Below, in pieces: positions 2,353 to 60,242 of a stretch of DNA of 64,000 nucleotides. Below the pieces are notes generated by a model, which did not search any database, was not told the origin of the DNA, and worked only from the letters and a program-made list of their open reading frames with translations. The first letter of the stretch is position 1, and each line of letters opens with the position of its first letter. The DNA is from Stegostoma tigrinum (lineage: Eukaryota). The stretch spans positions 51,156,390 through 51,220,389 of the forward strand of contig NC_081371.1 of NCBI RefSeq assembly GCF_030684315.1, read 5' to 3'. The translations under genes and the position numbers were made by a program.

Positions 2353-3234
2353 ACTTTAGGATTTATAAGGTTAAAAATGACGACCAGCGTTTCCAAAACA
2401 TTAAGGGGGACAGATATGGTAGTTAAGATAAACTATTTCTGCCAGTCGAGGAGACTTAGGATTCGGGTTATAAAGACCGAAATCAAGTTAAATAAATTCA
2501 CACAAAAAGTGGAAGTTGTTTGAATCTCTTCCGCAAATTTATTTTACGTCAGATTGTTATCGACAAGTATTAAATGATATGAGGCAATGCGAGCCAAGAT
2601 TACACAAGATGCACAGCACAGAAACAAGTACATGGTTTGCTGTACTTGTGACGGGACGGTGCACATCATTTAAATATCAGCCTCATCCGCCATTCCCTTC
2701 TACCTCGCATAGTCATCAGATTTCCCCTCAAATGCATCGAAACTACTTGCCTCCACTACTCCTTGCGGGAAGGAGTTCTACATCTTCATCACCGGCCGAG
2801 TGAAGAGAATTTCACAGTCATAGGGTCAGTGACCTTTTGTGTCGACACTGATCATCAAGCATCTACTCTAATCTTATTTTATCCACATTTAGCCCCGAGT
2901 CTTGCATGCTATAGCGTTTCAACTGCTCATCCAAATACTTAAGTGTCTTTCGGATTCTCACCTCTACCAAAGTTTAAGGCAGTGAGTTCCAGACACCCAG
3001 CTTCTGGATGATTTCCTCCTCCTTCACCTTCCTTTCCACTCCAAACCACTTGTTCTTTACCTTAACGGTGCCTTCGGTTGTCCCGTATCTAATTTATCCG
3101 TTTATAGGTTTATGCACCTCAAGCCTTTATTCTGAATTTCCAGGTTATTGAACAAGCAATTCGTCGACCAGCAGAGCGGCCCAAAGAAGTCGCACCGAGG
3201 AAGGCACAGCTCCCATCGGATCTACAGCATTACA

Positions 3235-3360
3235 AGATAATAAAATGTGAGGCTGGATGAACACAGCAGGCCAAGTAGCATCTCAGGAGCACAAAAGCTG
3301 ACGTTTCGGGCCTAGACCCTTCCTCTCTGATTCTCCAGCATGTGCAGTTCCCATTATCTC
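3235..3360 (-). mobile_element. Short Penelope-like hammerhead-motif element (family A), rearranged copy
   Basis: Matches the repeat also seen at 8123, 30110, 33433, 44367 and 60006 (gctggatgaacacagcaggccaag...gacgtttcgggcctagaccc). Confidence 0.75.
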
Positions 3361-3405
3361 GGATCTCCAGATTTACAGTTTAGGTGGAAGTGGGGAAGCA
3401 CTTAC

Positions 3406-7100: not shown

Positions 7101-10100
7101 CATTGCCACCCAAACTATCAGCTGCACTCGAGGCAGAACTGAGGGAGGATCACCAGACTCGAAACATTAACTTTAATTTCTCTTCACAGATGGTATCAGA
7201 CCTGCTGAGCTTTTCCAGCAACTTCTGTTTTTGTTTCTAATTTACAGCATCTGCAGTTCTTCAGGTTTTCACTAGATATTAATACTTGACAATTAACTGT
7301 CAAGGTTTGTTTAAATTTTTAAACTAGACAGGTTGACTCTGTTTGGTCGAGACATATCATTGGGTTCCATGAGCGATGTGTCTTCAATGGAATGACACCT
7401 AATTTCCTATGCCTTGCAAATTTCTGATTCATAGATGATTCATATATGCATCTGCAGCTGCGTATAAGCATTTCCTCACATGTCATATTGGGCTGCATCT
7501 TGTGCTCAAAGTCATCTTTGAAATGGAACAGTCATTTCAGCTGTTTTTCTGCAATGTCCTAGTTAAGAAATCAGTCTTTTCTGTACTGCTGTCTACCACA
7601 TACATACCTTCACTTGTCAATGTGTGTTGGATTTGAGCCACTTGTTCAATCCGCAAGCTTGATGCTGAAACAGGCACATTGGCACTCTGTGTAATTTAAT
7701 TGCTAACCTGATCAAATCATTTCTCACTGTGTATTCTACATAGTCATAAGTGTGCTTAACACCATCACTTTTGGTATTGGAAAGTATCCATTCTTCCTCT
7801 GATTACCTGGAAGGTAACCACAAGTAATTTTTGCCTCAAGCTGGATGCTGCAGTCAAGCCAAAAGAATGTTTTGCTTATCACACAAATGAATATTGTGGT
7901 AAAACAAAATTCGGTGCCATCTTAATGCTAGGCCTTCCTGCAATATTACAGGTTATGTTAAACTGTGTATCCTTTTACCTGTTTTACAACTTCAAGGTAC
8001 TCACTAACCCAACCAGCTAAACTCAGTGTCCAAGATTAGACTTGATTCTACAAATAGACAACATTTACTACATTTTCTTGTATGTGTGAAGCATTTTGCT
8101 GAAAACCAACTGTTGTAGTAATAGAGATAATGGGAACTGCAGATGCTGGAGATTCCAAGATAATAAAATGTGAGGCTGGATGAACACAGCAGGCCAAGCA
8201 GCATCTCAGGAGCACAAAAGCTGACGTTTCGGGCTTAGACCCTTCATCAGAGAGCAATGTTGCTGTTGCATTTGGGTAATGCTGCTGTGAATCTGACTGT
8301 TGAATTTTTTTAAACTCTTTTGCCCTCTCTTGATGCTATCCATTGAGTATTTTAGCAAACTAAGGAACTATAAGTATTAATTCTGCATTATTCACTGGAA
8401 TATGTCATATCTTAACTGGCAGAAATCAGAAATAATTCACCTTTTACATTCCTGGTGCTATGTGCACAGTTAATCAGCTAATCCTGTATGCTTGCTAATA
8501 TATCATCCACAACATCATGAGCTCTTATCTTATGCAGTAATCTTTAATGTGGTACTTTATTGGATGCCTTATGGAAATTAAATACATCACATCTACTAGT
8601 TCCCCTTTATCCACCCTGCTTACTACATCCACTGAGAACTCTAATAAATCAGTCAACTGTTCCTCTCTTAAAGCCACGTTAACTTCTTGGTTTTTTTTGA
8701 TTTTGTAAATGTCCTGATGACCCTCCTCAACATTGTATTATAGCGTTTTCTGAAAGACTGATAGATCAACTGGTCTCTTATTCCTGCTTAAATATAGGCA
8801 AAACACTGTAGATGCTGTAAAGCCGAAACAAGCACAGGGAATGCTGGAGAAACTAACCAGGTCTGGTAGCATGTTTGTAGAGAGAAACTGAGTTACCATT
8901 TTGAGTCTTCTTTTTGACTCTTCTGAAACGTTAATTCAGTTTCTGTCTCTACAAATGCCGCCAGACCTGCTGACAATTTCCCTAGCATTCTCTGTTTATA
9001 CCATTCCTGTTTTCTGTCTGTCTTCTTTCTTGCATAAGTGTGCCACTTTTCAAATCCACTTTGATCCTTCCAGAGTCTAGGAAATTTTAAGCTACATGCA
9101 AAAATCACAATCATTCAGGACTTGGTGCTACTATGCTCTTTCAGCAGCTCAAAAACGTAAAAGAGGAAGACCTCCAGGACAACAAAAAAATAAGACTGAG
9201 AAAAATAAGTCTGAGGGTGCAAGCACCAAACGAAGCAAAACCAATGGGAACTCGGGAGGCAAGCAAGAAAAAATCACTGATGCTTTTAAAGTCACAAAAA
9301 GAAAAATCGATCGTTTCAATGGAACAACCGAAGCTGAGCTTTTAACAAAAACCTTACCAGATATATTGACCTATGGTTTAGACATTGTGATTGTAAGTTA
9401 TGTTTCTCATTATTTTAATGAATTTGACTTAGTCTTAAGAAAAAATTACAGATTTTTAGTTCAAAAGCAACACATTCTGAAACAAAACGGTGTCAGATTT
9501 TGAAATGAATGATACAGATTCTTGTGTGTTTCAACAAAGTAGCCAAACATAAGGGTGGCTTTTGTTAGCTTCCTTTAATGGGGATGATAAAGATTAACTC
9601 TAAGGAAGTGGAATTATGCAATTATTCATTCCACTAATAATCCATTTTTATAGGTCTGCAGTTTAAGTGTGATCATATTGAAAAGCAGCCTTGGAACTGT
9701 GGCTGTCACCATAAATCAATAATTTCAATCATTTTGGTCTAGAAATTGTTAAATGTTCATATGTTTCAATTAACAGAATTTCATTGTCTATAATTGTTTA
9801 CTTAGGTAAAGTCTCGCTTTTCAAATTTTATGGTTTAGTTTTTTTAAATGATTGCTGTATGATACAAAGATACAATGTAAAAAAGAATCCCAAAGCATTC
9901 ACAAATCTTTGCAAAATTCTTAAGCATTCACAACTACTCAAAGGAATGGTGAGTTTGATTAGACACCAAAGACAAGATCTTTGTATGGAGGCAGAGTACA
10001 GGACTAAGTGCTAAATGAGTATATTTTTTGTGACAATACCCTAAGTTGTTCTTCTGTTGGCAGCAAGTGTTTATTCCTATTTGTTTATAATTTATGAAAT

Positions 10101-16100: not shown

Positions 16101-19100
16101 TGACTGTCTCTTACTTTATATTCACACTTTAACCTATACCTTTTTGTTTATAGGGAAATGCTTGTTTTTGTCTGGTCTTATTGATAAGCCTTTAAATCAT
16201 CTGGATGATGCTTCTTTACCAGAAAAGTATGGAATAGGTTTCACAAACATGGTAGAGAGAACTACTCCAGGAAGCAAGGACCTCAAAAGGTGATTCAGGA
16301 AAGCAAATTTAAAATTCATTTTTTGTTTCGGTTGGTACGAAAACATAATGTAAAAATTATTTGCATTTCAGCAAAGAGATTCGGGAAGGAGGAAAAATAC
16401 TTTTGCAAAAATTACAGAAATTTAAGCCACGAATTGCTGTGTTTAATGGGAAATGTAAGTACGCGTGAAAATTTTAAAAAGAAAGTTCCGACAATAACTT
16501 AATATTCAATTTTTTTTAAACTATGAATGTCGAGTTACCAGTACTGGGAAACCCAATTTCAATACAAAACACTCCCATTATGTATAGCACTGAATAAAGC
16601 TGCTTCTGACTTAACATGAGGACAATCAGTCTGTGACGAATGCCTCTGAAGTAAAAGGTCTCTGTACTTTCAGCTCCTCCCAGAATATGAGTTTATTGAG
16701 GTTATTGACTAGCTCGCCAAGCTGTCTTGTTCTCATTCAGACGTTTCATCACCCTGCTAGGTGACATCATCAATTGTGCCTCCGATGAAGAGGTGTTATT
16801 CTACTCCGCTTGGAATTTGTACTGTTTGGTCCATTATGCTGAGTAGTTCAGCAGGCAAATCAACAACCACATCCATATCCCAAGCTACAGATCTCTGCCA
16901 ACTGCTTACTATAATGGACCAAACAGTATAAATTCCAAGCGGAGTAGAATAACACCACTTCGTCGGAGGCACAATTGATGATGTCACCTAGCAGGGTGAT
17001 GAAATGTCTGAATGAGAACAAGACAGCCCGACGAGCAAGTCGATGACCTCACCCACGATTCTCTCTGTACTAATTGATATAAATACAGAGGGCATGTGCA
17101 TGGAAGACAACTTAAATTTATATTATCTGTCAAAAACAAATCACATTGAAAAGTTTCATTTTACACACCATTTACAGGCATCTATGAAATTTTTAGCAAA
17201 GAAGTTTTTGGAGTTAAGGTGAAGAAATTGGAGTTTGGGCAACAGCCGCACAAGATCCCTGAAGGAGAAACGGTAAGTACCTTAATATGATTTAATTTCC
17301 TTTGTACTTTTAAAATTTTGAAGTAAATAATGCTGTATTCCTATTTGGAGAACCCTTCTTCGCTTTCTCAAAGCCCCCAAACTTCTTGCTGTCTGATGAC
17401 TCTCGTCAGTGCCTCTTGAATCTTTGCTGTAGGGAAGAAAATCTTCACATCTTTTGATTAGTATTCATAGATTAGGTGAAAAAGTATTTCTAGAAGTTGG
17501 TATTTGTTTTATCAGTAGCTCTTCCGTATGCATTTTAATTCAGCACATGATGTCACAAACCTTCAGGGAAGAGTGTGCTTGTAATCAAACCCCACCATTT
17601 CATGAATGGGATATAAATGACCAACTGAATTACTATGGACAACAAGGTGTAGAGCTGGATGAACACAGCAGAGCAAGCAGCATCAGTGGAGCAGGCAGGC
17701 TGATGTTTCGGGCCTAGACCCTTCTTCAGAAAATCTTCTAACTGAACTACTAAGGTGATTAATTTGCCTGATATGACTCCTATCTACAACAAAATTAAAC
17801 TTAACTGGGTCTCATCAACAAGCAATAAACAAACATCCTATAACATGTGGGAAAACAAATTATTAATAACTACTGAGCATGCTTGAAGTACATTCTCTTT
17901 AAAGCACATTCATTCACAAATAGGAGCACCAAGACAGTTCTGCATGAACACCGTGGTGGAAAACTTGGGTAAAAAGGAGCCAGTTCTGTGGATCAAAAGT
18001 CTGTAGCTCAGGAGTGAAATGAAGTCCTCACAGTTATCATATAAGTCATAGAGTCATACGGCACGGAAACACACCCTTTAGTCCAACTTATCCATGCCAA
18101 CCAGACATCCCAGTCTGACCTAGTCCCATGTGCCAGCATTTGGCTCATATCCCAGTAAACCCTTGCTATTCATACAACCATTTAGATGCCTTTTTAAATG
18201 TTATAATTGTACCCACTGTCTCCATTTCCTCCAGCAGCTCATTCCATATACACACCCTACCCTCTGTTACCCCTCAGATCCTTTTTATGTCTTTTTTCCC
18301 CCTCACCTTAAACCCTATGCCCTCTAATTTTAGACTCGCTTCTCCAACCCCCCCCCCCCCCCCCCCCACCCTAGGAAAAATACCTTGGCTGTTGACCTTA
18401 TCCATGTCGCTTATGATTTTATAAACATCTAATTTTTCTTTTTGGAGATGAATCATATTGTTGATTGTAAGATGTTTGCAGATCCTTAGTTTGGTAGTCA
18501 GTCATTTGGACCTACAGCCATTACTTGAATGAAAAGTCATTTTCAGAATCTGAGTGGTGTTGCGAAGAACAAGAAAGAAAGAGATCTGTCTTTCTTGATG
18601 GCTTCTTGGAGGTCTACAACTTAAGTATCCAAAAGGTTTTTGCAAGGAAATGTTTCAGATCAAAGATACTTGACATCAGTTTATCTCTCAAAAGTTTCAA
18701 ACCTACTTTGCTAAAAGTTACATGACCTTACTTAACCAACAAGTGAACACCACAATGCTCTACTTTTGACCTTTGAATTGTGAAGAATATACCAGATACA
18801 TTCTCTGCAACAGCATGTTCCAAACACTCATTCTCCTTCTCACCTCCCCCCGCCCACCGCCGCCAACCCATTTATAAACTTTTTAAAGCACATCTTTACA
18901 ATTGCCAATTTTCATTATTTTAGGTCAAAAAATCTATTTCCTTAACAGAAACTTGAGTTTTCCTTTAACTGATCTTCACTTTGCTGAAGGGAATCATCTG
19001 TGGTGTCTTAGTCCAGTGATTTTTTTTTTCAAGATTACATTTGTTCCTTTTCACAATACTTTCCCACATGGTAATCCATAAACTTATCCTGGCCAGTGAT

Positions 19101-28360: not shown

Positions 28361-29517
28361 GGGAGAAAAGCTACTATTGCAATAGTACTTTCAAAACAGG
28401 TTCTTAAGCTTGTTCTGGAATAGAAGATCTATCCTGGCCTTAGACTGCTAGTTTGTTTGTAAATGTGCTAGTAATGCTGCTATACTGAGAACAAGGCTGA
28501 TGGCTTATATTTGCTCATTGGTAGATTTCTTGAATACTGCTTGACTAACTTCTCTTCCCTGAAATGCTTTTGTGAAGTAGTTACCTTTTTCGTGACAGAA
28601 GTAGGGAACAGCTTTAATGGTAATTTCTTCACAAATTATTGTGTTTTAAAATTCTGTTCCACAAGATGCTGTAGTTAATTGCAGAACACTGCATTCCCAC
28701 TTTGCAAATCCGATGCCATAACCACTGCACTACATGAGATCATGAGATCACACTGTTAGGAAGAGGAGGCGACCATTTGGCTTTTCAAGTCTGTCATTCA
28801 GTTAGGCTGAGCTGCCTTTCAAATCCAATTGTCTACTTTTGATAATCTTTAATAACTACAAAAAGTTATCAATACTCAATTTTGAAATTTTCAATAAATT
28901 CCCAGACCTCTCCACAAACTTCTGAAAAACAGAATTCCAGATTTCCACTACTCTTTAAATGAAAAATGCTTCCTGACATCATCCCTGCAAGTTCCTGCTG
29001 TAACAAGAAGGTTATTGCTCTTTGTTCTGGGTGTATGCTATTATAAAAGTTACATTTCTAAATTATAAAAAAACTTAGTGAAAATGAGGCAAGGCAGGAC
29101 CATAGCTCACATTTCGTGTTGTACGTCACTAACCTTACCTAAAGAATAGAGAAGCAAATATGAAGCTGTCTTTGCTGTCATTCAAAAATGTTAAGGTCAT
29201 ATAAAATGTTTCTTCAGCTAAGAGTTCGATTTGGCAAACTGGTTTGTATGAGATCAAAATAATGTACCTCCTGTGAAAGTACTGTTATTGTGCAAAATCT
29301 ACATTTTCTGATGTGAGAACATTTTTGCTAAATAACACTGAATTATTATATGTTTAATCTGATATCTCAATCTTGTTGCAGTAAATTCTGCTATGATTTA
29401 ATTCACAGAAACATGTCAGACGTTTGGATACTGAATAGCTTAAACCACAGCATATTTTTAAATGCATACTTAATTGGACAAAGGAGTGAGATGAAAATTC
29501 TGTATGCGATGGTGCTC

Positions 29518-29690
29518 CTAATTGTTAGGTCGTACCAATCTAAAATGTCCTGTTGGATCAGGAAGATACCACCTTTCCCAAAATTCCACATGAGCCGCAG
29601 GATAATCCCAGGGTTTATATCTTCCATTCCAATGTAGTAGTTTAGCTTCAGAAAGGAAGTGTTCTGAATATCTGGTGTCAGGACTCCAGC
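29518..29690 (-). CDS. GLT8D2: GLT8D2 last coding exon
   Basis: ctgtag|GWSPDTRYSEHFLSEAKLLHWNGRYKPWDYPAAHVEFWERWYLPDPTGHFRLVRPNN*. Confidence 0.95.
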
Positions 29691-32600
29691 CTACAGAAAA
29701 AACAATTTTTTAAAAATGTAGAAATTAGACTCAAGCTACTCTATGGCTGGAAATGTAAAACTGAAAAATGTCTTCCATTTACTAAATCTATTACATGGAA
29801 CACCTCTTGGGATTATACTTTTTTCACACTAGGTATTTTACAATCCTTTGATCACTTTGTTTTAATCAAACTGATCTTTGTTTCTTCTTGAGATTTTTCC
29901 AGCAGGTACATTTTTGCCAAGATTTTATTCTGCTGCGATATGACTGATAATAAATTCATGATAATTGTTCAGTTTATTTTTTGATATGTCTTAAGAGTTT
30001 GTTTCTCTGACATGATTAATTTTTCACCATATTTTCAAAGCTTGTGCTGTAAGTGATTGCCGTATTTCGTATTTATGTATTTGGTCAGTGAAAGTTGAAT
30101 GATTGAAACTCTCTCTGATGAAGGGTCTAGGCCCGAAATGTCAGCTTTTGTGCTCCTGAGATTCTGCTTGGCCTGCTGTGTTCATCCAGCTCCACACTTT
30201 GTTATCTTGGATTCTCCAGCATCTGCAGTTCCCATTATCTCTGAATGATTGAAACACCTGTTTTTAAGATCCGGCTAAGAGTGGATGCAGACTTTGTTTT
30301 GTTTTCTGTCAATTTTAAAAGTGTAAAGTCTACATATGTGTATTTTTAATGTTATCTTTTATCCAGAATTGTAACATGCTTCCCACTTCATATAATGTGT
30401 CCTCCCACTTCAGTTATCAGAGATGTGTGTCATATTTGTTAGCGTTATATGCAGCCAATTTGCAGGGTTCTTTTTTTAAAAAATGTTCTTTATCTACTTT
30501 TCTATTTGCCTTTGATATTTCATACAAGATCAAACTTTCTAAATTGTAAGTTCGTATCACGTGTCCAATAAATTTCAGATTCAAACTACCTCTTCCCGAA
30601 CCAGGTCAGTCGAGTTGTCTTGGTCATGGTTTAGTAAAATTACTTGCCCAAAATGGTTTTAATTCTTGTCTCAGTGCTTCTCTATGTTGCTTTGCTGATT
30701 ACCCTGCACTCATTTGATCAGTAATTGGTGTGATGTAGCTTTCCAGGATTTTCTGCTTTGTTGTCATGGCTAACTTTATGTTGATCATTTCTTTTTCACT
30801 ATTTGAAATGTATCTTTGACATTCCAATCTTTTGACTCATCTTTGTCATATGTTATGTCCAATGTTAACATTATTCCTAGATAACAAAATCTGTCTGATA
30901 TTTTCATTTCAATGCATGTAGTATAATTTCTATTTGGATACTAAGAGACACTTGGTTTTCTTACGATTTAAATTCAGCTCTTTCTCGTCACTTCCATTCA
31001 TTGCTATATCACCAACCCTAACTTTTACTAAGTTGGTTTCTGTAAGGTGTGATCAAGTTCTCACACGAAATCAAGTTCGATCTTGACCCGAAATGTCAAA
31101 CTTTCCTGCTCCTATGATGCTGCTTGCCCTGCTGTGTTCAGCCAGCTTCACACTGTGTTATCTCAGATTCTCCAGCATCAGCAATTCCTACGATCTCTGC
31201 AAGATACAGTGGCCCTGGATCTCACAACTCCTTATACTTCAATATGGCATACTGGCCTGCACTTAAAAATTTCCAGATTGCTTTAACTTGGGTTGGGACA
31301 GTTGTTGAAACACTCCTTCACAACAGAAGATTTAGAGTCCACTTTGGACAATAAGTACATGGAGAAGACTAGCCAATAGACTACATCAAGCTCCCCACCC
31401 TGTTCAAACTTATATACGAATAAGTGTCAACAACCAAGTTCTTCCACATGTTCTACTATGCTAGTAACATTTTAAGCACCATCCTTCTGTACCATATAAC
31501 AGATACTTGACAAATATGTTAGAAAAATGATAGGCAACTGCAGTACATAATGTCTCATATTGATCTCTCCAAATCCATGCCTCACTTTCTTGATTACTTT
31601 TTAACAAGTTGTGCTTTTCAATGTGTTCATCAAGCAGATCACCTAAATTCTTTTAGCACTCTTCCTGAGCCAGAAAATTACAAGTCCCAAATCATCCTAG
31701 TTTCAGTATGTAGTTGAGGCTGACTCTAGAGTTTGGTACTGAGGAAATTCTTTTTTCAAACTATCTGTGGAATAGCTCTCTGTGCCTATTTCGGTGGATC
31801 TAAAAATATCCTGTGGCACAATGTATAAGAAAAGCAGGGAGTTACCCTCGCCAGAACTCAAATCAAAATGAGTTAATTGATGTTTGTAGGATCTCAGTTC
31901 CATGAAAATTGGCCGCTGTTTTAGCTCGCAAAATAACACTCTCTATACCTCCAAGTTAATTCACGAGCTGTGCAGTACTCTGGGATGTGCAGTTGTTGTG
32001 AAAGGTGCTATGTAGCTGGAAGTCTTTTTTTCCCCCAACTATGTCCAATTTTAATTTACTAAAAACCTTTTGCGAATATTTGGCTAGCACAAGGAAATTG
32101 TGTTTTTAAAGCTGTGGGAGAAATCTGGTGAACAACTTCAAACTATTGTATGTTCCTGGCTGTGTCCTCTGCATGTACATTGTAAACAATCTGCCACATA
32201 TCACAAACTACCAGCTAAATGTAATTAGCAGCTGTGTGATCAGTGATCTGATGGCTATTCTTCTAAAGAATCCACTGATTTGTATTCCATTGATTGGTGT
32301 GTTACGAAAGGGGAATGTGCTCCTCCACCAAAGGCAATGTATCAAACTTCAACCCCATTTATCTTAAAAACTGCATGAGTCACAGTATTTTAATTCATTG
32401 CAACTTCAGGCAAATTGTTATGACTTCCAAATTAAGTCCAGTAAGTAAAATCTAATTCAACTGTGTGTAAAATATCGTTTTTTAAACCTCCATTCAAAAC
32501 TTCAGAGAGATAGTGAACAGGGCAAGAATAGGTCTTAAATAAAAACTGAAAGAACTGCTGATGCTGTAAATCAGGAACAAAACCAAAGTTGCTGGTAAAG

Positions 32601-35600
32601 CCCAGGAGGTCTGGCAGCATCTGTGAGGGGGAAAAACAGAGTTAACGTTTCAGGTCCAGTGACCCTTTCTCAGAACTCTGAATATATCTTACCAAGATGT
32701 CGAATATGCCATAAAGGGTTCACTAAGGAGTGTTTGTTGTGAAATACTATTAACATAGGAGGGGTCACTACTCCTTCGGCTAGTGCACTGCTGTACAGAT
32801 TCTCCCTATAAATGAAAAGAAACTCAATGAATGAGAAAAACATACAGACGACATTTTCATATACTGAGATAAACCCATTTCTGGTACTATAATTTCAAAA
32901 ATATACTAGAAAATGTTGCAAACCATATTTGCAAAATATATATTATTTGACACGTAATTAGCAACAAAGATTTTCATCCTAGGACTAAAATCCCCGCAAG
33001 TCTCATCTGTCTCTAATACTGTAACCTCCTCCAGCCCAACACACCTTCATTTCTGGCCTCCTGCACATCCCAATATTCCTGTTTTCCACCACTGATGCCC
33101 ATAACTTCTGCTGCTTTTGCCCGTTAAGCCACAAAATTTCCTCCTTAAACTCTCCGCATTTCTACTCCTGCCTTTAAGATTGACTTTAAAATCTAGCTCC
33201 TTTCCTGTACTAATACCTCCATGTGGGGCCCAGTGTCAAATATTGTCTGGTAAAACCCCTGTAGCATACTGACATATTACACTAGGTTAAAAGGCTGTAG
33301 GAAGTATTGAGAACTTTAGAAGATGTTTACATTTTTTTTAATTTGTTTTTGATTTATTTTTGTTTTCTGATTTTCTTTTCTGAAAGGACATGTTATTCCT
33401 ACCACTGTAAACCAAATTGATTTGAAATATTTCTGATGAAGGGTCTAGGCCCGAAACGTCAGCTTTTGTGCTCCTGAGATGCTGCTTGGCCTGCTGTGTT
33501 CATCTAGCCTCACATTTTATTATCTTGATTTGAAATATTTGCAAGGTTCCCCGAGTTTTCAAAAATTGGGATTTTGAGTTGAAAATGACTGAGCTACATT
33601 GCTGGGTCAAGAATTCTCAATGACATTTCACTATTGCTGCACTGGCACCAAGGTTTCAGTGCAAATACAATGGGTCAAATGGCATCCTGTGCCATATAAT
33701 TCTATGTAAATGGAAAATAAATGGTATCCAATTCTTCAGCTTTCTCTGTCACCTCCAAATACTACTAAGAGTTACCACTGTTTCCATTTTCCATTAAGAT
33801 GGCAGTGGAGTAGGGTTTCTGAGCCCGGGGCTCATCTGCTTTTCTTTTTGTTCCTTTTCTTCTATTTTATTTTACTTCCTACTTGGTGAAGAGATCAGTC
33901 ATGGCAACGGCATCTATGGTGGTGAGTGGGCCTAGCAGTACAGTCTTGTGTCAGTGACATCAGAGGCAGGTCCAGGTTCCTGGTGGTTTCTGCATCATTG
34001 AGGCGGTCATAGCCCTGACTCATGGCTGCTGTGGGTTTGGGTTGCCAACATCTGCCTTCAGTGCAGATTCATGAAAGCAGAGGCAGGTTTGGGCCCATTA
34101 CGAGACCTGACAGAATCAGCAGCTGCTGCGTTGGGCCCGAAGCGGAATCAAGTTTGGGCCAGTGCAGTATCAAGCAGCACTGGTAGCGTCTGCTTTCGTG
34201 AGGTCCAGCAAGGACTCTTGGTGGTGAGGGTGCTGGTGGAGGCAAGGTGGCGGCAAAGAGTTGGTGACTCTTTTTCCAACAGCAGCAAGCTGCAAAGGAA
34301 ACGTTACCCGACCACCAACCCATGGCCTATAATGGAGCAGTTAACTGTAAAGTTGAACACTTTCTTTATTTCTTCATTTCTCTGCCTTTATATTCTGTGG
34401 GTTTGGTTTCTATCTTGTACTTAAAGTTGGCGTTGGACAGTGGCAACACAGTACACATTTTGCCCTATTTTGTAAGCAGATACAAAGACAATAAATAAAT
34501 CAAACTGACTCAACTTTATAGGAAGACAGTGGCAGCGTGGTCGTGTCACTGGCTAGTGAGCCAAAGGTGCAGCTCTGGGGATGTGGGCTCAGTTCCCCCC
34601 ACAACACCCCTATCTGGTCTAGAAATTATGTGACCCTAGACCCGCAATGGTTGGCTCTTAACTGCCCTCTGAAACAGACAAGCAATCTATCCAGTTCAAG
34701 GGGAATTAGGGATGGGCAACAAATGCCAGTTATGCCCACATCCCGGGAATGCAGAAAATAATTAAACTACATGTTTATTCTATTGGCTTACAGCATCTCC
34801 ATGTTATAACAGGGAGATGTGGATAACTGATTGACAGCCCCTAAGTAAACTGTTAGCTTTAGCCTAGGAGACACATATTGCAGAAAGGATAATAAAGAGG
34901 AGAAAACAATCCTTGGCTTTTAGCAAAATTAATTCCTGACAAAAACTTAATAAGTAGCACACAGGAAGATTTCAGTTCTTAACATCAGTCTTTCTGGATG
35001 TCTCAGATTAAATAGTTGTAAGCCAACAGAACTAAATTTTTAAAAAGACTAAAATGAAAATTCTAACGCTTACTTGAGCAGCATAAAGTACCGGATCAGG
35101 AGTAGGCCATTCAGCCCTTCAAGCCTATTTGCCATTCAATGTGACCGTGGTTAATCATCCAACTTAGGATCCTGTTTTTGCTTTCTCCCAATACCCATTG
35201 ATCCCTTTAGCCCCAACAACTATATGTTACTCTTTCTTGCAAAATATTTAATGGTTTGACCCAAATCTCTTTCTGTGGCAGAGAATTCTACAGGCTCAGT
35301 GCTCTCTGGGTAACAAAACTGCTCCTCATTGCAGAATTACACGGCCTTACCTGAACCGTCACACTGTGACCAGTGATTTTGGACTCCCTGATCATCAGGA
35401 ACATCCTGTGTTTACCCTGTCTAGTCCTGTTTGAATTTTATAGTTTCTATGAGGTCACGCCTCATTCTTCTCAACTCCAGTGAATAGAATCCCTACAGTG
35501 TGGAAGCAGGCCAATAGGCCCATCAACTCCACACCAACCCTCTGAAGACCATTTCACACAGGCCCATCCCACCTCTGTAACCCTGCATTTCCCATGGCTA

Positions 35601-38600
35601 ATCCATCTCGCCTGCACATCATGGGCAATTTAGCATAACCAATCCACTTAACCTGCATCTTTAGACTACAGCACCCAGATAAAAAAAACTATGCAAACAC
35701 AGGGAGAATGTGCAAACTCCACACAGACAGTCACCCAAGGCTAGAGTCAAACCCTGGCACTGTGAGGCAGCAGTGCTAACCACTGAGCCACTGTGCCACT
35801 CCCAATCCAGTCTGTCTTCATAGTCACAGAAACTGCAGCAGAAACTTGACATACAGCCAGAAACGTGCTCAAAGATATCCAACAGCCCTGCCACAAAATT
35901 TCAACTGGAGTTTTCACTTTTTTTAAATACAGCAACAAATCCCTGCATGTCGTAAGCAGTGGAAGGAAAATGTTAAGGAACTGAATTGCCTCCAGCTAAG
36001 ATGGCTGTATTATTGAGCTTATAATCAAGGATGCATTACTGAAAGCCGAGCACCTGAAAGGGATCCCAGCTTAGGACTAAGGTTTTTTTCTCGGATTTAA
36101 TTTGAGCTGTAGGCAGGCTATATATTCAAAGCTACTAATATATTTAAAATAATGTATCTGTACTCGCGAATGTCTTACCCTCATCACAGCGCTGTCTCCA
36201 ATTTCTATAATGGGAAATGTCTGTGCAAAACTAGTCATGCTGTAATTACATCCTTTTCCCAAGGGCATAACAATACTACCACTGTTAGGATAGTACATTG
36301 AAGCAGGGCAAGTTTAAATATCAATCTCCATAATGCATGTAGATGTCTGAATTTATTATATGTACACACAGTAGGTGGGAATCTATAATTCTAAAATGGG
36401 AATCAATTATATTTGTATACCATGGTCCAATTAACCCCATAACCTCAAACTGACACAATGCAAATACTTCAGAAAGCAAGGCTGTAACTCGACTGATATT
36501 GGTGGACCTATTAACGGTTCACTGGCCCATCAACCCATTGTTGTGTGCTAAGGTATAAATACACAAGGAAAGAACAGGGCTTACTCTACATTGGCTACCA
36601 GCCATTTTTCCAACTGCTTAGTTATCCGTTGTCGTTTCCATTCTGTAACATTTGCAACAAACACACCAACATTAAAGGAACACGTCGTGGGATTTATCCC
36701 TAGACCTCTGACAGTTGGCTTCCGGTAATCCAAATGTCCCATAAATGTGGTCTGGAAAGATAAAGAGCCAAAGTTATAATTGTAGTGACTGAAAGATAAT
36801 GCCATCTAAAGGAATCTGTTCTGTGATATAAAGGTACACTTTCAATATAGATTCATGCTTTATTGTTACTGATGCCAGTTTAGGTCACCTGCATTCCCAT
36901 AGTCCGGACCATCTCATGAGTTGAGGTCAGATCACAGTCTGTTGAGAAGGCAGCAGCATGGCCAGGCTTCAGCACAGTGTCGTACAAGTCCTGGATATCA
37001 CCTGCAGTTAAAATCAGTCCAAATTCAAATAACAAGGTATAGCTACACAGAGTCAGCCAGCAGTTTAGCCAAAACATGTCTGTCAATTACTGTAATATTA
37101 AAAAAAACACGCAAGCGGGTGATCAGGCCTGATCAGATTACATAGCGAGAGCAGGCTTGATGGGCTGAATAGCCTACTCCTGCTCCTATGTTCCTTTAAG
37201 AGCTGGGCAAATGGAAGGTGGAAGAATTGGAGAAACCAAATAATTGATATGTATACAGAAATTGTAGTGCACCAAAATCTACAAACATCATCAGCATTTC
37301 AGAATCCATTAAACTAGAATGGAAATAAATCAACTTTAATCCTGAGGGACAGCCTCAGTGAGAAGGGATACAAGCATGTCTCCTGAGTTTCAAATGGGAA
37401 GATCTTCAGCTACGATTTCAAAAGTGTAAGATTAGCAAATTAATTAATAACACCATCTTCTAGCACTGCATATAGACTGGTCTCACATTTTATAATTTCT
37501 TCTGGGAATGAGTTCATCTATTCTCCTGGGAGATTTTTTAAAAAATTCATTCATGGCATCACTAGCTGGGCCATTCTGAATTGCCCTTAAGAAGGTGGTG
37601 CTGGTGACTTTCCTTTGTGAACTGCTGCAGACCACCGGCTGTGCTGTTAGGGAGGGAATTGCCAGGGTTTCGACCCAGCAACAGTGAAAGAACAGCAATA
37701 TGTTTTCCAAGTCAGGGTGGTGAGTGACTTGGAGGCAAACTTGCAAATGCTGGTATTCCCACGAATCTACTTCCCTTTTATTCTAGATGGAAGTTGTGGG
37801 TTTGGAAGGAGCTGCCTAAGGAACCTTGGTGAAATTCTGCAGTGCATCGTGTAGATGGTACACACTGCTGCTACTGAGCTTCGATGGTGGAGAGAGTGAA
37901 CAGTTTGTGGGTGTGTTGCCATTCTAGTAGGTGACTTTGTCCTGGATGATGTCAATATTCTTGTGTTTTGTTGGAGTTGCACCCATCCAGACAAGTGGGG
38001 AGAACTCCATTATACTCCTGAGTTGTGTCTCATAGATGGTGGGCAAGCTTTGGGGAATCAGGTGGTGAGTTATTTGCTGTTGGATTCCTGGCTCCTATAG
38101 CTACTGTATGTATATGGCTAGTCTAATTGGCCAATAGTAACCCCCAGGATGTTGATAGTGGCAGATTCAGTGATGGTAATATCATTGAATGCAAGAGACG
38201 ATGGTTTGAATCTCTCTTGTTGGAGCAGTCATTGCCTGGCATTTGTAATTTGCCCCTTGTCAGCCCAAGCCTGGATATTGTCCAGGCCTTCCTACATTTG
38301 GACCTGGTTCAGTATCTGAAGAGTCATAACTGGTGCTAACCATAGCAGTATCATCGACGAATGTTCCCACGTCTGGCCTTGTGATGGAGGGAAGGTCATT
38401 GATGAGGCAGCTGAAGATGGTTTGGCCTAAGACACTCCCCTGAGGAATTCCTGCAGCATTGTTTTGGAGCAGAAATGATATGCTTGATGTGAAGGGCTGT
38501 CACTCTCACCTCACTTAACCTCTGAAATTCAGTTCTTTTGTCCATGTTTGGACCAAAGCTGGAATGAGGTCAGGAGCTGAGTGGCCCTGGCAGAACACAA

Positions 38601-41600
38601 ACCAGGCGTCAGTGAGCAGGTGCTATTAGTGGCACCTTCCATCACTAAGTATCTGGGCATTACCAGATTGGAATAATAGATCATCTAACAGCATGGTGTT
38701 GAAGAGATTTAAAATAAAATATTTTCTAACCAACCTGTTCAGGGATGCAATTACACATCTCTGGGGCAGTTGGGATTTTAAACCAGGCCTCCTGGAGATA
38801 ACGTGACACCTATATTTACAAATCACAAGATGAGCTATGCTTTGCTAAACATACTCTGTTCATAAACTCGGAAGTAGACTTTTTGATAAATTGGCACTTC
38901 AATTTCAAGATCCCTCAGCAAGCTCTTTGAGCAACAGCCTCTGCTAACTCCAGTTCCTGCAAAATCATTGCCCATGTGTCCACCCTGCATTAAATTCTGC
39001 TTAACACTACATCTTCGCTATCTCCGGCAGTTCCCTGTACCCTTAGAAACCTTGAAATGGCAATCCTCATTTTCCAAACTCATCATTAAGGTGCTAATGC
39101 CTGAGCATGCAAACATCTCTANNNNNNNNNNNNNNNNNNNNNNNNNNNNNNNNNNNNNNNNNNNNNNNNNNNNNNNNNNNNNNNNNNNNNNNNNNNNNNN
39201 NNNNNNNNNNNNNNNNNNNNNNNNNNNNNNNNNNNNNNNNNNNNNNNNNNNNNNNNNNNNNNNNNNNNNNNNNNNNNNNNCCCCTCCCACATCTGAAAAT
39301 CCCATTCAAAGAGATTTACCAGGATGTTGCTGGGTATGGAAGGTTTGAGTTATAAAGAAAAGCTGGGTAGGCTGGCACGTTTTTCACCAGAGCATAGAAA
39401 GTTGAGAGGCGACCTTATAGATGTTTACAAAGTATTGAGGGGTATTGATAGAGTTAATAGTAGTTGTCTTTTCCCAAGGATGAGGATTTCAAGACTAGGG
39501 AGCACATTTCAGGGTGAGAGGAGAGAGCTTTAAAAAGATATGAGGGGCAACTCTTTTATACAGAGGGTGGTTCACAGGTGGAATGAACGTCCTGAGGAAG
39601 TGGGGGATGCAGGTACAGTTACCACATCTAAAAGGCACTTGGATAAGTACATGAATAGGAAAGGTTTGGAGGGATTCAGGGCAGGAGCCAGGCAGGTGGG
39701 ACTAGTTTTGTTTGGGATTATGCTGGAGGGTCTGTTTCTGTTCTGTATGACTCTATGACCCTGTAGCTCTTTTCAACCAGACTTTTAGTCCACCCCCTCT
39801 GCTGTGTGACCCTGGAAGAAAAACATGAAAATGAGTTATGAAAATGGTCAAATGCATCTTACTTACTTCACCCTGGAGCTCCAGTGCAGCAATTTTTAGT
39901 TGAACTAGGTTCGTCCCTGGCAAGCTCCTTGTGACATTATTTAGAGAGAAAGATCTACAGGGAACATTTTTGTATGACATAATGTGTCATCATGTTCTGA
40001 AATAAACTTTCTATTCTTCATTCTTTTCAGGGATGTCATTGCTACTGGCAAAGCCAACATTCATTCCCCATCCTTAATTGCCCTTGAACTGAGGCCATTT
40101 CAATGGGCAGTTAACAGTCGCCTACATTACTGCAGGTCTGGGGTAGGTAAGAGTGGCAGGTTTGATTTCTTTCCCTAAAGGTCATTAGTGAACTAGGTGA
40201 GCTTTTAAAATTCATCAGTGCTGATTTATTTACTTAAATTTAAAGTTGATCAGATACATTGGAATTTTAACCTACGACTGCAGAGTAACCTGTACGATTA
40301 CCAGCTGAGTGACATTTCCACCACTTCTCGCACCGTCTGAGTGGATGGGAGAAGCAGGCTTAATATTCGCTTCAAAAGAAAATTGTACACATTTTTGAAG
40401 GGAAAATATTACAAAGTTACAGACAGAGATCAGAGAAGCCACCTGTTTTTGAACTGAAACCTATGCAAAGTAGCTGGCTTGTGTGTAATGTAGCAGAGAC
40501 GGCCAGCTGAATGCTCCCATCAGGTTCTGCTTCAATGCTGCCATTCTTAATGACCAACACGAGCTCACCTTTCCCAGTTAAGAGTCAATGTACTGCTAAG
40601 TAGGGGCATGGCAATGCTGACTGAGTTTCCCAAGTTCCATACAAAGAGTAATACTCCATTCATGCATCATTCATGCTGCACATGCCTACACACACTGAGC
40701 ACCAGAGTATCGCACTTACTGCTGATCATGGTCAAGCAGGACTACATGCGGTGCAGATTCACCAGAATTCTACCACCAAAAAAAATTTTTTAATGTATCA
40801 GCCCTGTTTGTGGATTGGACTTGTAGCTCATTGAGGCTATAAAAGGGAACGGAATTATGTTATTTCAGCAAATTACAGGGTTTGACAGGGAGCATAAAGA
40901 GAATCTATTTCCTCTGGTGGAGAGTACCAAACGAGGTGGCAGAATTTTAAAAGTAGAACAAGGGTTAACACGAGGGGAGGGAGCAATTGAAAATGTTAAA
41001 ACTGTAATTAGTAGGGCTTGTTAATGAAGGGAATCAAGATTCTGGAGCCAAAGCAGGGAAGTGGAGTTAGGGGACAGTCCATGATCTCAATGAACAATAG
41101 AACAGGCTTGAAGTTGCTGAATTAGTCTTTTTCCTTTCCCTTTGAGTGTGATGCTGTTGTCTTCAAAGGTCAGCATTCTAAAGGCAGTGAATGATTTGTT
41201 TATGATGTGTGAACCCACCCTGACTTGTTATGTTATAATAGAAGTGCTATGAAAATTTTGACCATCTAGAAAATACCTTGTATAATAACATCATCGTCCA
41301 GGTATATCACCTTTTCATGATCACGAATAAGATATGGAATGAAGTATCGGACAAAGTTGAGCTGAAATAGAAAGATATTCTGTCAAATGGCAACTCTATA
41401 TGAAAATAACTGAAGAAAGGTCAGCAAGAGAAACATGAAGCAAGTCAGGATCACTGTGAAGCAGATCAGGAGAAGCAGAAATCAGACCAGGATCACCATG
41501 AGGCGGACTGGCATCAGTGTGAGGCAGATTGGGATCACTGTGAGGCAGATTGGGATCACTGTGAGGCAGACCAGGATCATTGTGAGGCAGACTGGGATCA

Positions 41601-44600
41601 TTGTGAGGCAGATTGGGATCATTGTGAGGCAGACTGGGATCAGTGTGAAGCAGATTGGGATCACCTTGAGCCAGACTGGGATCAGTGTGGAGCAGACTGG
41701 GATCACTGAAAAAGAGAAGAAAGTAAATCTAACAGCAGTGTCATAGAAAGCCGTGAGTTGATCGGTGAATTTTGCAGCTTTGTTTATTTCTCTCCGAAGT
41801 TAAACTAAAGTGCAAGGAAATTAGAAGTTTCTTGACAATGGGATTGAGTAATTTCTAATATTGCATGCAGTTCTCGTCACTACTAGAAGGACATGGTTTC
41901 TTTGGTGATAATGCAGAGAAGGTTTACCAGAATGTTGTTTGGTCTGGAGGGTTATAGTTATGAGGAGAGGCTGGATAAATTCAGATTGTTCTCACTGGAA
42001 AGGCGGAAGCTGAGGGTTGACCTGATAGAGGGCTAGAAAATCATGAAAGACATAGGGAGGGTGGACAGTCAGAGGCTTCTTCCTCAGGTAGAAAGGTCAA
42101 CTATGAGGGGGCAGACATTCATGGTGAGAGGGACAATATTTAAGGGAGAAGTGTAGGGGAAATTTTCACACAGAGGATGCACTGCCAGTGGAGGTGCTGC
42201 TAGTGGACACATTATCAATGTTTACGATATATCTTGATAGACACATGAACAGGAGGTGAATAGAGGGATGGATACTGCTCGTGGGCAATAAGTAGTGGCT
42301 CTCAATAAGTACTGGAATCTTGGTGAGCCAAAGGGCCTGTTCCTGTGCTGTATTGTATTGTATTGTACTGTGTAATACATTTCAATCAATCTCCCTGTGT
42401 CTAAGTGATGACAGAAGATGAGAACTGAATGATGAAGGGTCTAGGCCCGAAACGTCGGCTTTTGTGCTCCTGAGATGCTGCTTGGCCTGCTGTGTTCATC
42501 CAGCCTCACATTTTATTAGCCTGTTAAGTCTGTACTTTTTTAAGTCATAGACTTTATTATTTAAGACAAAGAGGAATGGCAGAGCAGCTTCAACTCCCGG
42601 CATTTTTAGGACAAAGCTTCTCTCTTTGACAATTGTGTAAATTTTGGATCCCTCTGCCTCAGAAGACAGTACAGGCACAGTCATTACATTTTTTAAGCCA
42701 GAGATAGGTTGATTCTTCTGAACCAGTGGAATCAAGGGCTATTGTGGGTCAGTAGGAATGTGGAACTCAAATAACAAAACACATCAGCCATGAGCTTATT
42801 AAGTAGCAGGACAGGCTTGATGGGCTCAATGGCCTATTCATAATACATATGTTTTGAGGAGCATGTTAAGTAAATCTGTAACACTGGAGTAGGCTTTGTG
42901 AAGGGTGTATCCCCAACCTATTATTCCGGGCTCAAAGCATTCATACTCACAGGTTTCAGTAACTCGGGTCTTGCTGAGTCTGGTCTCACTTTCCCCTGCA
43001 GTATTGCAGCATTGAATTCCATCATTTTGTAGTGGATGCCTTTCAGCTTTGTGTTTTCGATCCATTTGCTAATGGAAAGTGAGCGGGCAGGGGTGGTTGG
43101 ACAGAAAACATAATTAACCTGTTTATCTATCTGAAGAAATGATGATTCGCAGAAGTGGAGGAGAGCACACAAAAGTAAAAGCCATAATAAGGTGACGAGA
43201 AATCTTGTCCCTTTATACAATGATATCAGGTTCCTTCACATCAGCTCTTCATCCGAACTTATCTCCATTCATCCCACTAAACCTAAATAACATGATCGCA
43301 TTATGTGTTATATTCAGAATCATAATGGATGTCAATGAATAACTATCATGTTTTTGGGGCAGCAGAGCAAATGCTTCCTCCAATTTATCAGGATTCCAAC
43401 TTGTCAAAGCCATTTGACTCAGTCATTTGACTTCCATTTAATTTCGATCTACCACAGAATCCACTTCTTGTTTAGTGTGGCCTGACCTTTGGGAGTTAAG
43501 GGGCTGTCATTGGGACATGATGGAACAGGATGGGGGTCATTCCTAGGGGGCATTATGACAGAGTGGATTGCCCACCTCGTATAAAACTTGCCCAATTTTC
43601 AGCGATTGAGTTAAGACTACATCATATTCACTGCACAGAAATAGGCCATTCAGCCAATCCATGTAAGCACTTTTCTCCTCCCTTTTCTTTTGTAGGATAT
43701 AGGCAGCATTGGCAATGCCAGGATTTATTTACTATCCTTAATTGCCCCTTGGATAGAGAACCTCCCTTGATCATTTTAAAGCGTGGTTAAAAGTCAACCG
43801 CATAGCTGGAGGAGGGAGTTACATATAGGCCATACCAGGAAAGTGTGGCAGGTTTCCTTCCCTAATAATATTAGTGAACTAGGTGTGTTTTCTTTACAGT
43901 AATTGGTTACACGGTTGACATTGGATTAACTTTTAATTCCAGGCTTTTATTTATTTCAAATTTCACCATCTGCCATGATGAGGTTCAAACTGATGTCTCC
44001 ACAACAATAGTCTAAGGTTCAGGATTACTACAGTAGTGACATTTCCATAATACTTCCATCTCCACATGTCCCTGAATCCACTGTCTTGATCGGTCATGGT
44101 TTGAGCACTTTTCTACTCTCAGCCGTCTCTGCTCTAAGGAGAACAATCCCATGTTCTCCAACATCACTGACATCTTAATTCCTGGACCAATCAATCTGTC
44201 TTCTCTAAAATCTTCATGCCTACCTGAGGTGTTGTGCTCAGTTCTGAGCACCATACTCCAATTGAGGCTGAACAAGTTTGTACGGGTTTGTCCTAGTTTC
44301 CTTGTTTTTGCATTTGCTAGGCCTCTAAATGGAAAAGTCTAGGATCCCAAATGCCTCCCACATTTGTATCAGAGATAATGGGAACTGCAGATGCTGGAGA
44401 ATCCGAGATAACAAAGTGTGGAGCTGGATGAACACAGCAGGCCAAGCAGCATCTTTGGAGCACAAAAGCTGACGTTTTGGGCCTAGACCCTTCTTTTCTG
44501 ATGAAGGGCCTAGGCCTGAAACGTCAGCTTTTGTGCACCTCTGATGCTGCTTGGCCTGCTGTGTTCATCCAGCTCCACACTTTGTTGCCTCCCACATTTG

Positions 44601-57143: not shown

Positions 57144-58002
57144 AGGTCAAATAATCCCTTTTAGGGAAGGAAATCTTCTGTGATTTCCCAGTCTGGCTCC
57201 AGAATCCAGACCCACTGCAATGTGCTTGCTTCCCAGGGTCAAACAAAAACAAAATCACCTCCAGTCCTGCATTAGCAGTATTAGGTCAATTTTATCGGCT
57301 CAAGTCTTCTGATGTAGGCACTGAATCCTTTGCCTCGGACACAGAGGGAAATGGTGTTACTTTGGAAGCGGGAGCAGAATGGTGAAATCAGTGATGGTGC
57401 AGTGAAGCCTTCATTCTCTGCCTACCTTGAAAAACTCTGTACACTACCTAAAATTAATATTAACTGTTTTACAGTTTGCACCATTTTTCAAAACTGTTGC
57501 AAGCAATAAATGGCTAAACAAGTTTCAAATGCATTTTAAAATAATCAGGTTTCTAATTGGAAAAGCAAATGGTAGAGAATGTAAGAAATAAGGGCAAGCC
57601 TGTTCCACCATTCAATAAGATCATGGCTGATCTGAACGCAGGCTCCATTCCACTTTCCTACCTGTTGCACAGACAATAATTCCAAAGATTCAAGATCCTC
57701 CAAGAGAAGGAATTCCCTTTTATCTCCATCTTAAGTGACACAACTCCTTGTTCTGAAACCATGGATCTAGATCTTCCCAGCAAGGGAAATGTCATCTCAG
57801 CGCTTAACTTAATAAAGCCCCAGAAGAACATCACATGTTTTGGCAAGATCATCTCTCATTCTTCTATGTTCCACTGAATGTAGAGACCACTGTTCTAGCT
57901 GCAAAGTCAACTGGAAAATCCTGTAACATAATACAAATCGTTGCCAAAGCTTGACCTAATTTGAGGCCATTGGACACTTTACAGTTGAATAAAGTGCCTA
58001 TG

Positions 58003-58640
58003 GCTGCCACCTCTCAGCCCATCTCTGCATCCTGTCAATGACCCGCTGCAGCCTACAACAGCCCTCTTTACTGTCAACGACACCTCCAACCTTTGTGTCG
58101 TCTGCAAACTTGCTGACCCATCCTTCAATTCTCTCGTCCAAGTCATTAATAAAAATTACAAACAGTAGAGGCCCAAGGGCAGACACCTGTGGAACACCAC
58201 TCACCACTGACTTCCAGGCAGAATATTTTCCTTTCACTACCACTTGCTGTCTTCTGGTGGCCAGCCAATTCTGTATCCAAGCAGCTAAGTTCCCCTGTAT
58301 CCCATTCCTCCTGACCTTCTGAATGAGCCTACCATGGGGAACCTTATCAAATGCCTTACTGAAGTCCATATACACCACATCCACAGCTCGACCCTCATCA
58401 ACTTTTCTAGTCACATCCTCAAAAAACTCGATAAGGTTTGTGAGGCATGACCTACCCCTCACAAAGCCGTGTTGACTGTATTTGATCAAGCCATGCTCCT
58501 CCAGATGGTCATAAATCCTATCCCTCAGAATCCTTTCTAACACCTTGCAGACGACAGACGTGAGACTTACTGGTCTGTAATTGCCGGGGATTTCCCTATT
58601 TCCTTTCTTGAAGAGAGGAATTACATTTGCCTCTCTCCAG
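58003..58640 (-). mobile_element. Young, uninterrupted CR1 reverse-transcriptase fragment
   Basis: Open frame [58 protein letters not shown]. Confidence 0.93.
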
Positions 58641-59600: not shown

Positions 59601-60005
59601 TGCCTGACAACAACTTCACTGTATCTGTGGAGATCAGTGGGTATTGGCCCTGCAACCAGGCACATGCTCTAGGTTCAAATCCCACCTCAGAATCTGATTT
59701 TCACAGAAGGTGTGTCATATCACAGCCAAACAGATTAATTATCCACTGGTAAATCCTTCTGATGTGCCTACAGCAGTTGGTATGGCTTGGGAGAGTTTTC
59801 TGGTCAAACAGTATAGCTGCTGTGCTTGAGTAGGGGTTTAAAAACTCTACACACAGTGCAGTCTTACTGTGAGGGTCATCTCACTCTGAGGGACTATGAC
59901 ACACACTGCCTTTAATGGGTTCAAGGTTGTGAAAGGCACCAAGGTGCAGTGGGAAAAGACTACTGTCTGATATCTTTCTGCCAAAATTAAATGGGCTAAA
60001 TTTGT

Positions 60006-60242
60006 ATCAGTGATAATGGGAACTGCAGATGCTGGAGAATCCAAGATTACAAAGAGTGAGGCTGGATGAACACAGCAGGTCAAGCAGCATCTCAGGAGCA
60101 CAAAAGCTGACGTTTCGGGCCTAGACCCTTCATCAGATGAAGGGTCTCTCTGATGAAGGGTCTCGGCCCGAAACGTCAGCTTTTGAGCTCCTGAGATGCT
60201 GCTTGGCCTGCTGTGTTCATCCAGCTCCACACTTTGTTATCT
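60006..60242. mobile_element. Family A inverted pair, both cores intact
   Basis: gacgtttcgggcctagacccttcatcag (minus core) then ctgatgaagggtctcggcccgaaacgtc (plus core). Confidence 0.87.

Follow-up and report, generated by a model that had tools for sequence, protein, structure and literature searches.

Does the hammerhead-like motif at 33433-33462 represent a ribozyme acting in a shark intron, or the debris of a mobile element inserted there? The letters at this position read CTGATGA-A-GGGT(CTAG)GCCC-GAAAC-GTC-AG, and the motif lies within an intron (32806-36584) of a gene that we take to be GLT8D2. In the window (the whole 64-kb stretch of DNA analysed here), the pattern CTGATGA N8-30 GAAAC has five exact matches (8250-, 33433+, 44498+, 60136-, and 60150+), compared with 0.30 +/- 0.56 in 100 shuffles (largest 3).

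Hammerhead motif in the window

The focal motif consists of the following parts, with positions numbered according to established hammerhead knowledge and PMC4209133.

33433..33460, + strand: minimal hammerhead motif, focal copy, predicted cleavage after 33460
33433-33439, + strand: C3 to A9, followed by a bulged A at 33440
33441-33452, + strand: stem II (GGGT/GCCC) with loop CTAG, followed by GAAAC-GTC at 33453-33460

The initial annotation placed this motif at seven sites, all of which were recovered by a loosened pattern search of the window, and every core letter is kept in five of the seven copies. The copy at 30115 carries C15.2>T, a CpG change that destroys the ACGT palindrome, and the copy at 42429 carries C3>A and A1.1>G. 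Both boxes of the minimal hammerhead ribozyme (min-HHR), CUGANGA and GAAA, surround stem II in the cited copies, together with an unpaired base after A9 and the pair G10.1-C11.1. Helix III is absent; as had been proposed, its place is taken by the palindromic positions 15.2-16.2 (ACGU) and then GUC (NUH) in family A, the repeat family described below, which is the arrangement of a minimal type I hammerhead. Stem I, which had been predicted to be at most about 2 bp and missing in some copies, indeed measured 2, 2, 2, 0, 2, 2, and 1 bp (G-U counted). Further related motifs were found by the loosened search at 17729(-), 12865(+), 32673(-), 59168(-), 16773(-), and 16975(+).

The covariance-model check that had been suggested was negative, as none of the seven sites matched an Rfam hammerhead model at E<=5; the Rfam matches to MIR821, mir-577, and mir-1791 in the window are inverted repeat pairs. 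Stem II with its CUAG loop (33441-33452) is self-complementary as RNA, and a 12-bp duplex is predicted between two strands. For this duplex, the predicted cofold is -38.0 vs -22.8 kcal/mol, and stem III is not supplied by the duplex.

Anatomy of the family A insertions

A dispersed repeat of 92-132 bp (family A) carries the motif at its 5' end, and its copies end about 90 or about 130 nt past C3. The insertions and their target-site duplications (TSDs) are as follows.

33433..33524, + strand: focal family A insertion, 92 bp, short 3' site, GLT8D2 intron, antisense to the gene
33417..33432 and 33525-33540: left and right parts of the focal TSD, perfect over 16 bp
30110..30241, + strand: family A copy with tail, 132 bp, 5' TCTCT, C15.2>T
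30096-30109 and 30242-30255: TSD of the 30110..30241 copy, 14 bp
8123..8254, - strand: family A copy with tail, intact core, antisense in TDG, without clear TSD
42430..42518, + strand: family A short copy, C3 lost, TSD looked for and none found
44367..44585, both strands: head-to-head inverted insertion, 15-bp TSD; - arm with tail and without CTGAT, + arm short with core at 44498
59996..60241, both strands: head-to-head inverted insertion, 9-bp flanking repeat within chance range; - arm with tail and core at 60136, + arm short with core at 60150
3229..3363, both strands: inverted insertion, 12-bp TSD with one mismatch; short - arm without CTGAT, + arm almost tail alone
17636..17739, - strand: copy of a more diverged A-type subfamily, core CTGAAGA, with G16.2>A and a 13-bp TSD with one mismatch
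31081-31205, + strand: copy related to the 17636..17739 subfamily
47087-47266, inverted: copy related to the same subfamily

TSDs of at least 12 nt (at most one mismatch) flank 6 of the 14 insertions tested vs none of 298 random position pairs, and no TSD of this length was found at the other eight. Head-to-head pairs, joined close to the core, account for six insertions (3229, 12768, 16697, 44367, 47087, and 59996), and two of these (44367-44585 and 59996-60241) combine the long end on one arm with the short end on the other. The solo copies have no terminal inverted repeats and their TSDs vary in length; no tandem copies are present in the 64-kb window. As first annotated, the motif belongs to an abundant short element; the repeat is dispersed and very common. 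The candidate of a unit circularly permuted at the common TCTCTGAT was rejected, because two long copies continue as CTGATACAAAT.

Sister families of the repeat

Two further families carry related motifs.

32540..32680, - strand: sister family B, copy in sense to GLT8D2 with G8>A, a GUU triplet, and stems I and II of 7 and 5 bp
12768-12994, inverted: family B, 15-bp TSD
7139, + strand: family B copy
49629, + strand: family B copy
59113-59289: family B copy
16697..17051, both strands: family C inverted pair, 7-bp stem II, C3>T in both arms, unrelated tail

Family B is homologous to family A along its length and stops at the 5' edge of its own stem I; the tail motif common to both has 19 matches in 64 kb, vs 0.02 expected. 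The family B copy at 32540-32692 (-) begins 12 nt past the GTAAGA splice donor of a GLT8D2 exon, and the predicted fold of its motif at 32673 is a textbook minimal hammerhead despite G8>A. In the family C pair, which Rfam mislabelled as MIR821, an ATG starts at A9 as in anole Poseidon, preceded at a distance of about 50 nt by a TATAAAT box.

An 8-bp tail stem, AGATGCTG/CAGCATCT, is predicted at 30158-30166 and 30217-30225 and is conserved at equivalent sites in families A and B. It closes the region between hammerhead and tail and could be formed by long copies only. Covariation is almost nil (term 0.09; one two-sided change), so the stem is still a prediction, and we regard it as a candidate RT-binding structure.

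Element ends and joints in contigs

Contigs of four runs were aligned to 29450-30350, of which X1 comes from the same species, and X5 and X19 from another species. At least 158,999 contigs of X1 aligned, nearly all on the repeat; the summed contig depth (10^7 vs 22.5) should not be read as a copy number. Among the ends listed, the loose 3' ends of X1 gather at 30204, 30206, and 30207 (563, 1048, and 2830 contigs) and at 30244 (1107 contigs), and the loose 5' ends at 30111 (312 contigs) and 30114 (647 contigs). Since the flanks agree at only 0.38-0.44, and at 0.38-0.39 for the 3' ends, these loose ends are true element edges, and no common upstream body was found among those listed for X1. The two 3' end sites, 37-40 nt apart (30204-30207 and 30244-30245), are present in three of the four runs and recur in X5 and X19.

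The commonest joints listed connect opposite strands tail-to-tail, from the short end at 30206/30207 to the long end at 30242/30244, with up to 70 contigs per row, which suggests that the element inserts at its own end or that priming is paired at the two sites. Head-to-tail joints among those listed include 30207>30111 (19 contigs), 30208>30111 (14), 30241>30111 (14, and one contig in X5), and 30239>30115 (9); such tandem joints amount to tens of contigs vs thousands of dispersed ends. In the joint-letter table, 4 of the 12 rows listed rejoin at 30142/30143, the predicted cleavage site. Because contig ends also gather at 30141-30144 and the table is partly listed, these joints are only a lead, and they may be an assembly or alignment effect.

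The contigs of other species showed no empty-site joints; those of X10 reached only the exon and the repeat, and those of X5 and X19 the repeat without the GLT8D2 exon, so that the latter two runs are uninformative on expression. In the contigs, variation of at least 5% was seen at 13 tail positions (in the genome of X1 or in other runs) and, within the core and stem II, at none apart from the change belonging to the 30115 copy itself; this fits constraint on source copies.

Relation to Penelope-like elements

According to the available text of PMC8557442, Penelope-like elements (PLEs) show 5' truncation, partial tandems, inverted 5' copies, and hammerheads in a pseudo-LTR, with a tail of 30-40 bp that is often on one end only. 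In the anole Poseidon element PAc, two internal RT start sites delimit the tail (PMC11167929, in part). Family A likewise has two 3' ends (an optional tail), 5' truncation, inverted 5' copies, and partial tandems. The Penelope-like origin proposed in the initial annotation is supported by the two 3' ends 37-40 nt apart, the head-to-head pairs, and the long TSDs, as well as by the presence of the same core just past RT/GIY-YIG ORFs in other animals.

Metagenome contigs from 9 of the 64 parts of the collection were scanned with the core pattern, which gave 123 loci. A PLE-type ORF was detected at 37 of them, and at 32 of the 123 (four of which supplied or duplicate the queries) the core lies on the same strand, 66-164 nt past the C-terminus of such an ORF. 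The ORF of locus L006 gave weak RVT_1 and GIY-YIG matches, below the Pfam gathering scores, and the CX2-5CxxC linker (Zn-finger-like) of Neptune/Nematis is present in all three C-terminal queries. In the same contig, a DNA polymerase B2 (Polinton-like) ORF piece at 4108-4740 (-) adjoins the Neptune-type element (Pfam E 6.5e-08). The core pattern was absent from the viral contigs searched. Family A itself was not found among the 123 loci, and only the 39-40 nt core is common to both, so the metagenome loci show the company of the motif and not the parent of family A.

The Neptune/Nematis-type ends (L005/L006, L022, and L052) resemble family A in a near-identical core, a short GGG..CCC stem II, and the ACGU palindrome, and an inverted second copy is also found in L005/L006. 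Unlike family A, they have retained stem I, which covaries and spans 3-6 bp, with an ORF lying 66-164 nt upstream, and their tails are unrelated to that of family A. The min-HHRs in metazoan PLE pseudo-LTRs described in PMC4209133 (available text) share with it both boxes, the unpaired base after A9, G10.1-C11.1, the palindromic 15.2-16.2, and the lack of helix III, as well as thousands of single truncated copies, opposite-strand pairs, and several families per genome. The schistosome min-HHR of the same study differs in its stem II (7-8 bp vs 4 bp in family A) and stem I (4-5 bp vs 0-2 bp). As in PAc (PMC11167929, in part), two RT start sites downstream of the hammerhead would define the optional tail, and the targets are AT-rich; unlike in family A, the PAc ORF starts inside stem II, and family C is nearer to this layout.

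In the 64-kb window, the linked parent ORF (Penelope RT and GIY-YIG) that had been called for was not found for the repeat itself, and the search there for a PLE ORF of families A, B, or C was negative (best E values of 0.15 by tblastn and 0.33 by a local endonuclease HMM). A protein search with the single open frame of the family A tail returned none of 49 candidates at E<=0.001, which is weak evidence. Because no ORF remnant was found in the window and no protein for the open frame, we only infer a PLE parent for family A. The PLE minimal-hammerhead class is where its copies fit best, as truncated members. Minimal PLE hammerheads have been known since 2014 (PMC4209133, available text), and family A is another case of that known class. 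Sharks are not named as min-HHR hosts in the available text of PMC4209133 or the supplementary files searched, and no description of family A in sharks was found in the mainly open-access literature searched.

Activity of the hammerhead

Previous work reported that min-HHR monomers do not cleave and that dimers cut at a low level (PMC4209133, available text). According to the accessible part of PMC11167929, the PAc hammerhead cuts only with protein present, cleavage is dispensable for insertion in vitro, and reads ending at the cut site were not found in anole RNA-seq. Stem I of family A spans 0-2 bp, vs at least 3 bp in 93 of 121 metagenome motifs and in 23% of cross-family controls; the short helix I of about 4-5 bp, a min-HHR trait, is absent in family A and reaches 7 bp in the family B copy at 32673. 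On helix I, the family A copies are thus truncated or degenerate members of the class. A predicted CUGAUG:CGUCAG pairing covers the core and the cleavage site, with P(unpaired) of 0.01-0.19 in four of five family A copies, and the hammerhead-ready fold of the focal copy (-1.8 kcal/mol) is predicted to lie 9.6 kcal/mol above its MFE (-11.4 kcal/mol). The short stem I and the predicted pairing of core with cleavage site strengthen the doubt on activity voiced at the outset. In nearest-neighbour folding, the hammerhead fold is not the minimum in six of eight ORF-associated control motifs either; since these controls fail too and the anole hammerhead needs protein, folding alone cannot rule out activity.

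Among nine young copies, the core and stem II show 4/196 differences vs 32/720 in the tail (p=0.15), and, without four subfamily columns, 4/196 vs 16/684 private differences (p=1.0), a test of low power with four core events. Among the copies, then, the core is no better conserved than the tail, which had been named as an outcome that would speak against the first interpretation, and there is no sign of selection on individual family A copies. The core boxes are kept across families while stem II changes, which points to selection on the source elements. We consider the family A hammerhead, as modelled here, likely to be a non-cutting relic.

Host genes and orientation

We presume that the host genes are TDG on the + strand and GLT8D2 on the - strand, as placed by short peptide motifs and splice sites; the first GLT8D2 coding exon and the HCFC2 exons were not found by motif search of the window. 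The placement of the copies in TDG and GLT8D2 introns holds for the five cited copies between mapped exons; the 60136/60150 pair, beyond the last mapped exon (about 45250), is at most a candidate for an intronic position. All five are antisense to the host gene, and cleavage of host pre-mRNA is therefore not expected.

Origin of the copies

Each copy is quite probably a dead, extremely 5'-truncated insertion of the terminal repeat, comprising hammerhead and tail, of a PLE that is likely Neptune-type. The direct bases of this reading are sequence, ends, TSDs, inversions, orientation, and decay rates; the folds are predicted, and we infer the parent clade, priming, source RNA, and inactivity. 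In the proposed cycle, an RT/GIY-YIG protein would bind RNA carrying the segment and nick AT-rich DNA; reverse transcription would begin inside the RNA, about 90 or 130 nt past C3, in the manner of the anole Poseidon protein; synthesis would run back through the hammerhead and stop 0-5 nt upstream of the core; and the cDNA would then be joined to a staggered target cut, either singly or in head-to-head arrangement with another cDNA. The tandem and tail-to-tail joints would arise where an element inserts at its own end. The hammerhead would be inherited from the parent, where it may cut only as a dimer via the ACGU palindrome or with the help of the protein.

As for the source RNA, we lean somewhat towards spread from short non-autonomous source copies, which are favoured over an autonomous transcript because the recurring CTCT is non-pairing; direct run-off from the RNA of an autonomous element is possible and less probable. 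The non-autonomous status given in the initial annotation is thus a candidate reading, as no parent ORF turned up either way. The stricter version, in which all copies are abortive run-off of a Neptune-type element whose transcript starts just upstream of the hammerhead, and no non-autonomous family exists, appears doubtful. Internal priming would then copy about 90-130 nt before falling off the 5' end of the RNA. This would explain why the listed 5' ends of X1 cluster at 30111 and 30114 with unrelated flanks and why family B ends at the edge of its stem I, and it agrees with reports that PLE reverse transcription begins near the 5' part of the RNA (PMC11167929, in part); the internal promoter in the Penelope pLTR (PMC2377424, in part) keeps the model alive, and 12 of 64 metagenome copies lose agreement with their relatives within 10 nt of C3, as a rough count. 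However, the recurring upstream CTCT provides only 2 bp of stem I, unlike 93 of the 121 PLE-type motifs, the listed loose ends share no upstream body, and the D. virilis start site lies about 120 nt ahead of the intron end at which helix I begins (PMC4209133 and PMC2377424, available texts).

The initial annotation had called the elements retrozyme-like, a description that does not fit dispersed monomers with a minimal hammerhead and rare tandem joints. Metazoan non-LTR retrozymes are also short and non-coding, with a type I hammerhead and a probable PLE origin and PLE-driven spread (PMC7229834; bioRxiv 10.64898/2026.07.22.740005; both in part). Their units of 170-400 nt are arranged in tandem, with canonical hammerheads, and circular RNAs are formed (PMC7229834), whereas family A is dispersed, 92-132 bp, and minimal. 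A canonical type I hammerhead, with a 6-bp helix I, a helix III, and loop 1-loop 2 contacts, is not present in family A, nor are tandem arrays of 170-400 nt units, there being no tandem in the window and few tandem joints in the contigs; with no arrays in the window and no canonical hammerhead, family A is not a retrozyme as defined in the available text of PMC7229834. A true retrozyme, with tandem units of 97 or 131 nt released by double-hammerhead cutting, circularised, and re-inserted by a Penelope enzyme so that the window holds solo offspring, is improbable. Head-to-tail joints do exist in the contigs (9-19 contigs per row among those listed), some of the listed rows rejoin at 30142/30143 as described above, and the 2026 preprint (10.64898/2026.07.22.740005, in part) reports tandem hammerhead repeats in one chondrichthyan and retrozymes derived from PLE ends (pLTRs). 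Yet the tandem joints are far outnumbered by dispersed ends, the copies start at the core instead of the cleavage site and are never longer than one unit, the pile-up of contig ends at 30141-30144 may offer an artefactual source for the cleavage-site joints, and eight of nine predicted Xenopus dimers were uncut in the same preprint. An action of some copies on host genes, for example by cutting TDG or GLT8D2 pre-mRNA, is very improbable. Antisense orientation is found in all six solo A-type copies that lie between mapped exons (p=0.03, post hoc), as expected if sense copies were harmful, but antisense copies are not hammerheads in host pre-mRNA, the bias falls to 6/8 with family B (p=0.29), and every sense-strand copy between mapped exons is changed in its core (7139, 12865, 16975, 32673, and 44493). 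Splice-acceptor-like runs in the tail, seen by sequence inspection, could explain the bias without cleavage, and the copies decay neutrally. Least credible of all, and already largely refuted, is a chance likeness within a MITE or SINE. The lack of an Rfam hammerhead match and of a linked ORF, together with folding of the region that is no better than in shuffles (z 0.14-0.66, full copies), would be in keeping with chance. Against it, both core boxes persist in three families whose pairing stem II arms differ (4, 5, and 7 bp), stem I of family B reaches 7 bp, the tail and inversions carry the PLE signature, the solo copies have no terminal inverted repeats and a variable TSD length, and the same core is linked to an ORF elsewhere.

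Taken as truncated PLE insertions, the minimal hammerhead motifs of shark introns call for annotation as repeat debris and not as host ribozymes; the hammerhead class is already known, and the finding itself adds little to it. As a data set, family A is young and very abundant with sharp ends, so that priming sites, stop sites, and joints can be counted, which serves the still open questions of the PLE insertion cycle and hammerhead function. More speculatively, and with little expectation that it holds, family A might be a miniature non-autonomous Penelope parasite of perhaps 10^5-10^6 copies, the boundaries of which trace the Penelope RT cycle in vivo, with priming at two sites, a fixed stop at the core, and, in a minority of copies, a start exactly at the cleavage site. 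If so, the latter copies would be a genomic footprint of minimal hammerhead cutting in the germ line, evidence of a kind that the anole RNA-seq search did not find.

Other repeats of the window

Several fragments that we take, from their motifs, to be CR1-like reverse transcriptase lie at 57998-58726 (-), 51055-51402 (+), 5700-6250, and 12000-12700, and are unrelated to the hammerhead repeats. A second abundant SINE-like family without the hammerhead motif is present at 6801-7003, 14619-14791, 35587-35799, and 51700-51911. Finally, a 21-bp tandem repeat of 10.8 copies occupies 41483-41708 in a GLT8D2 intron, just upstream of an exon.
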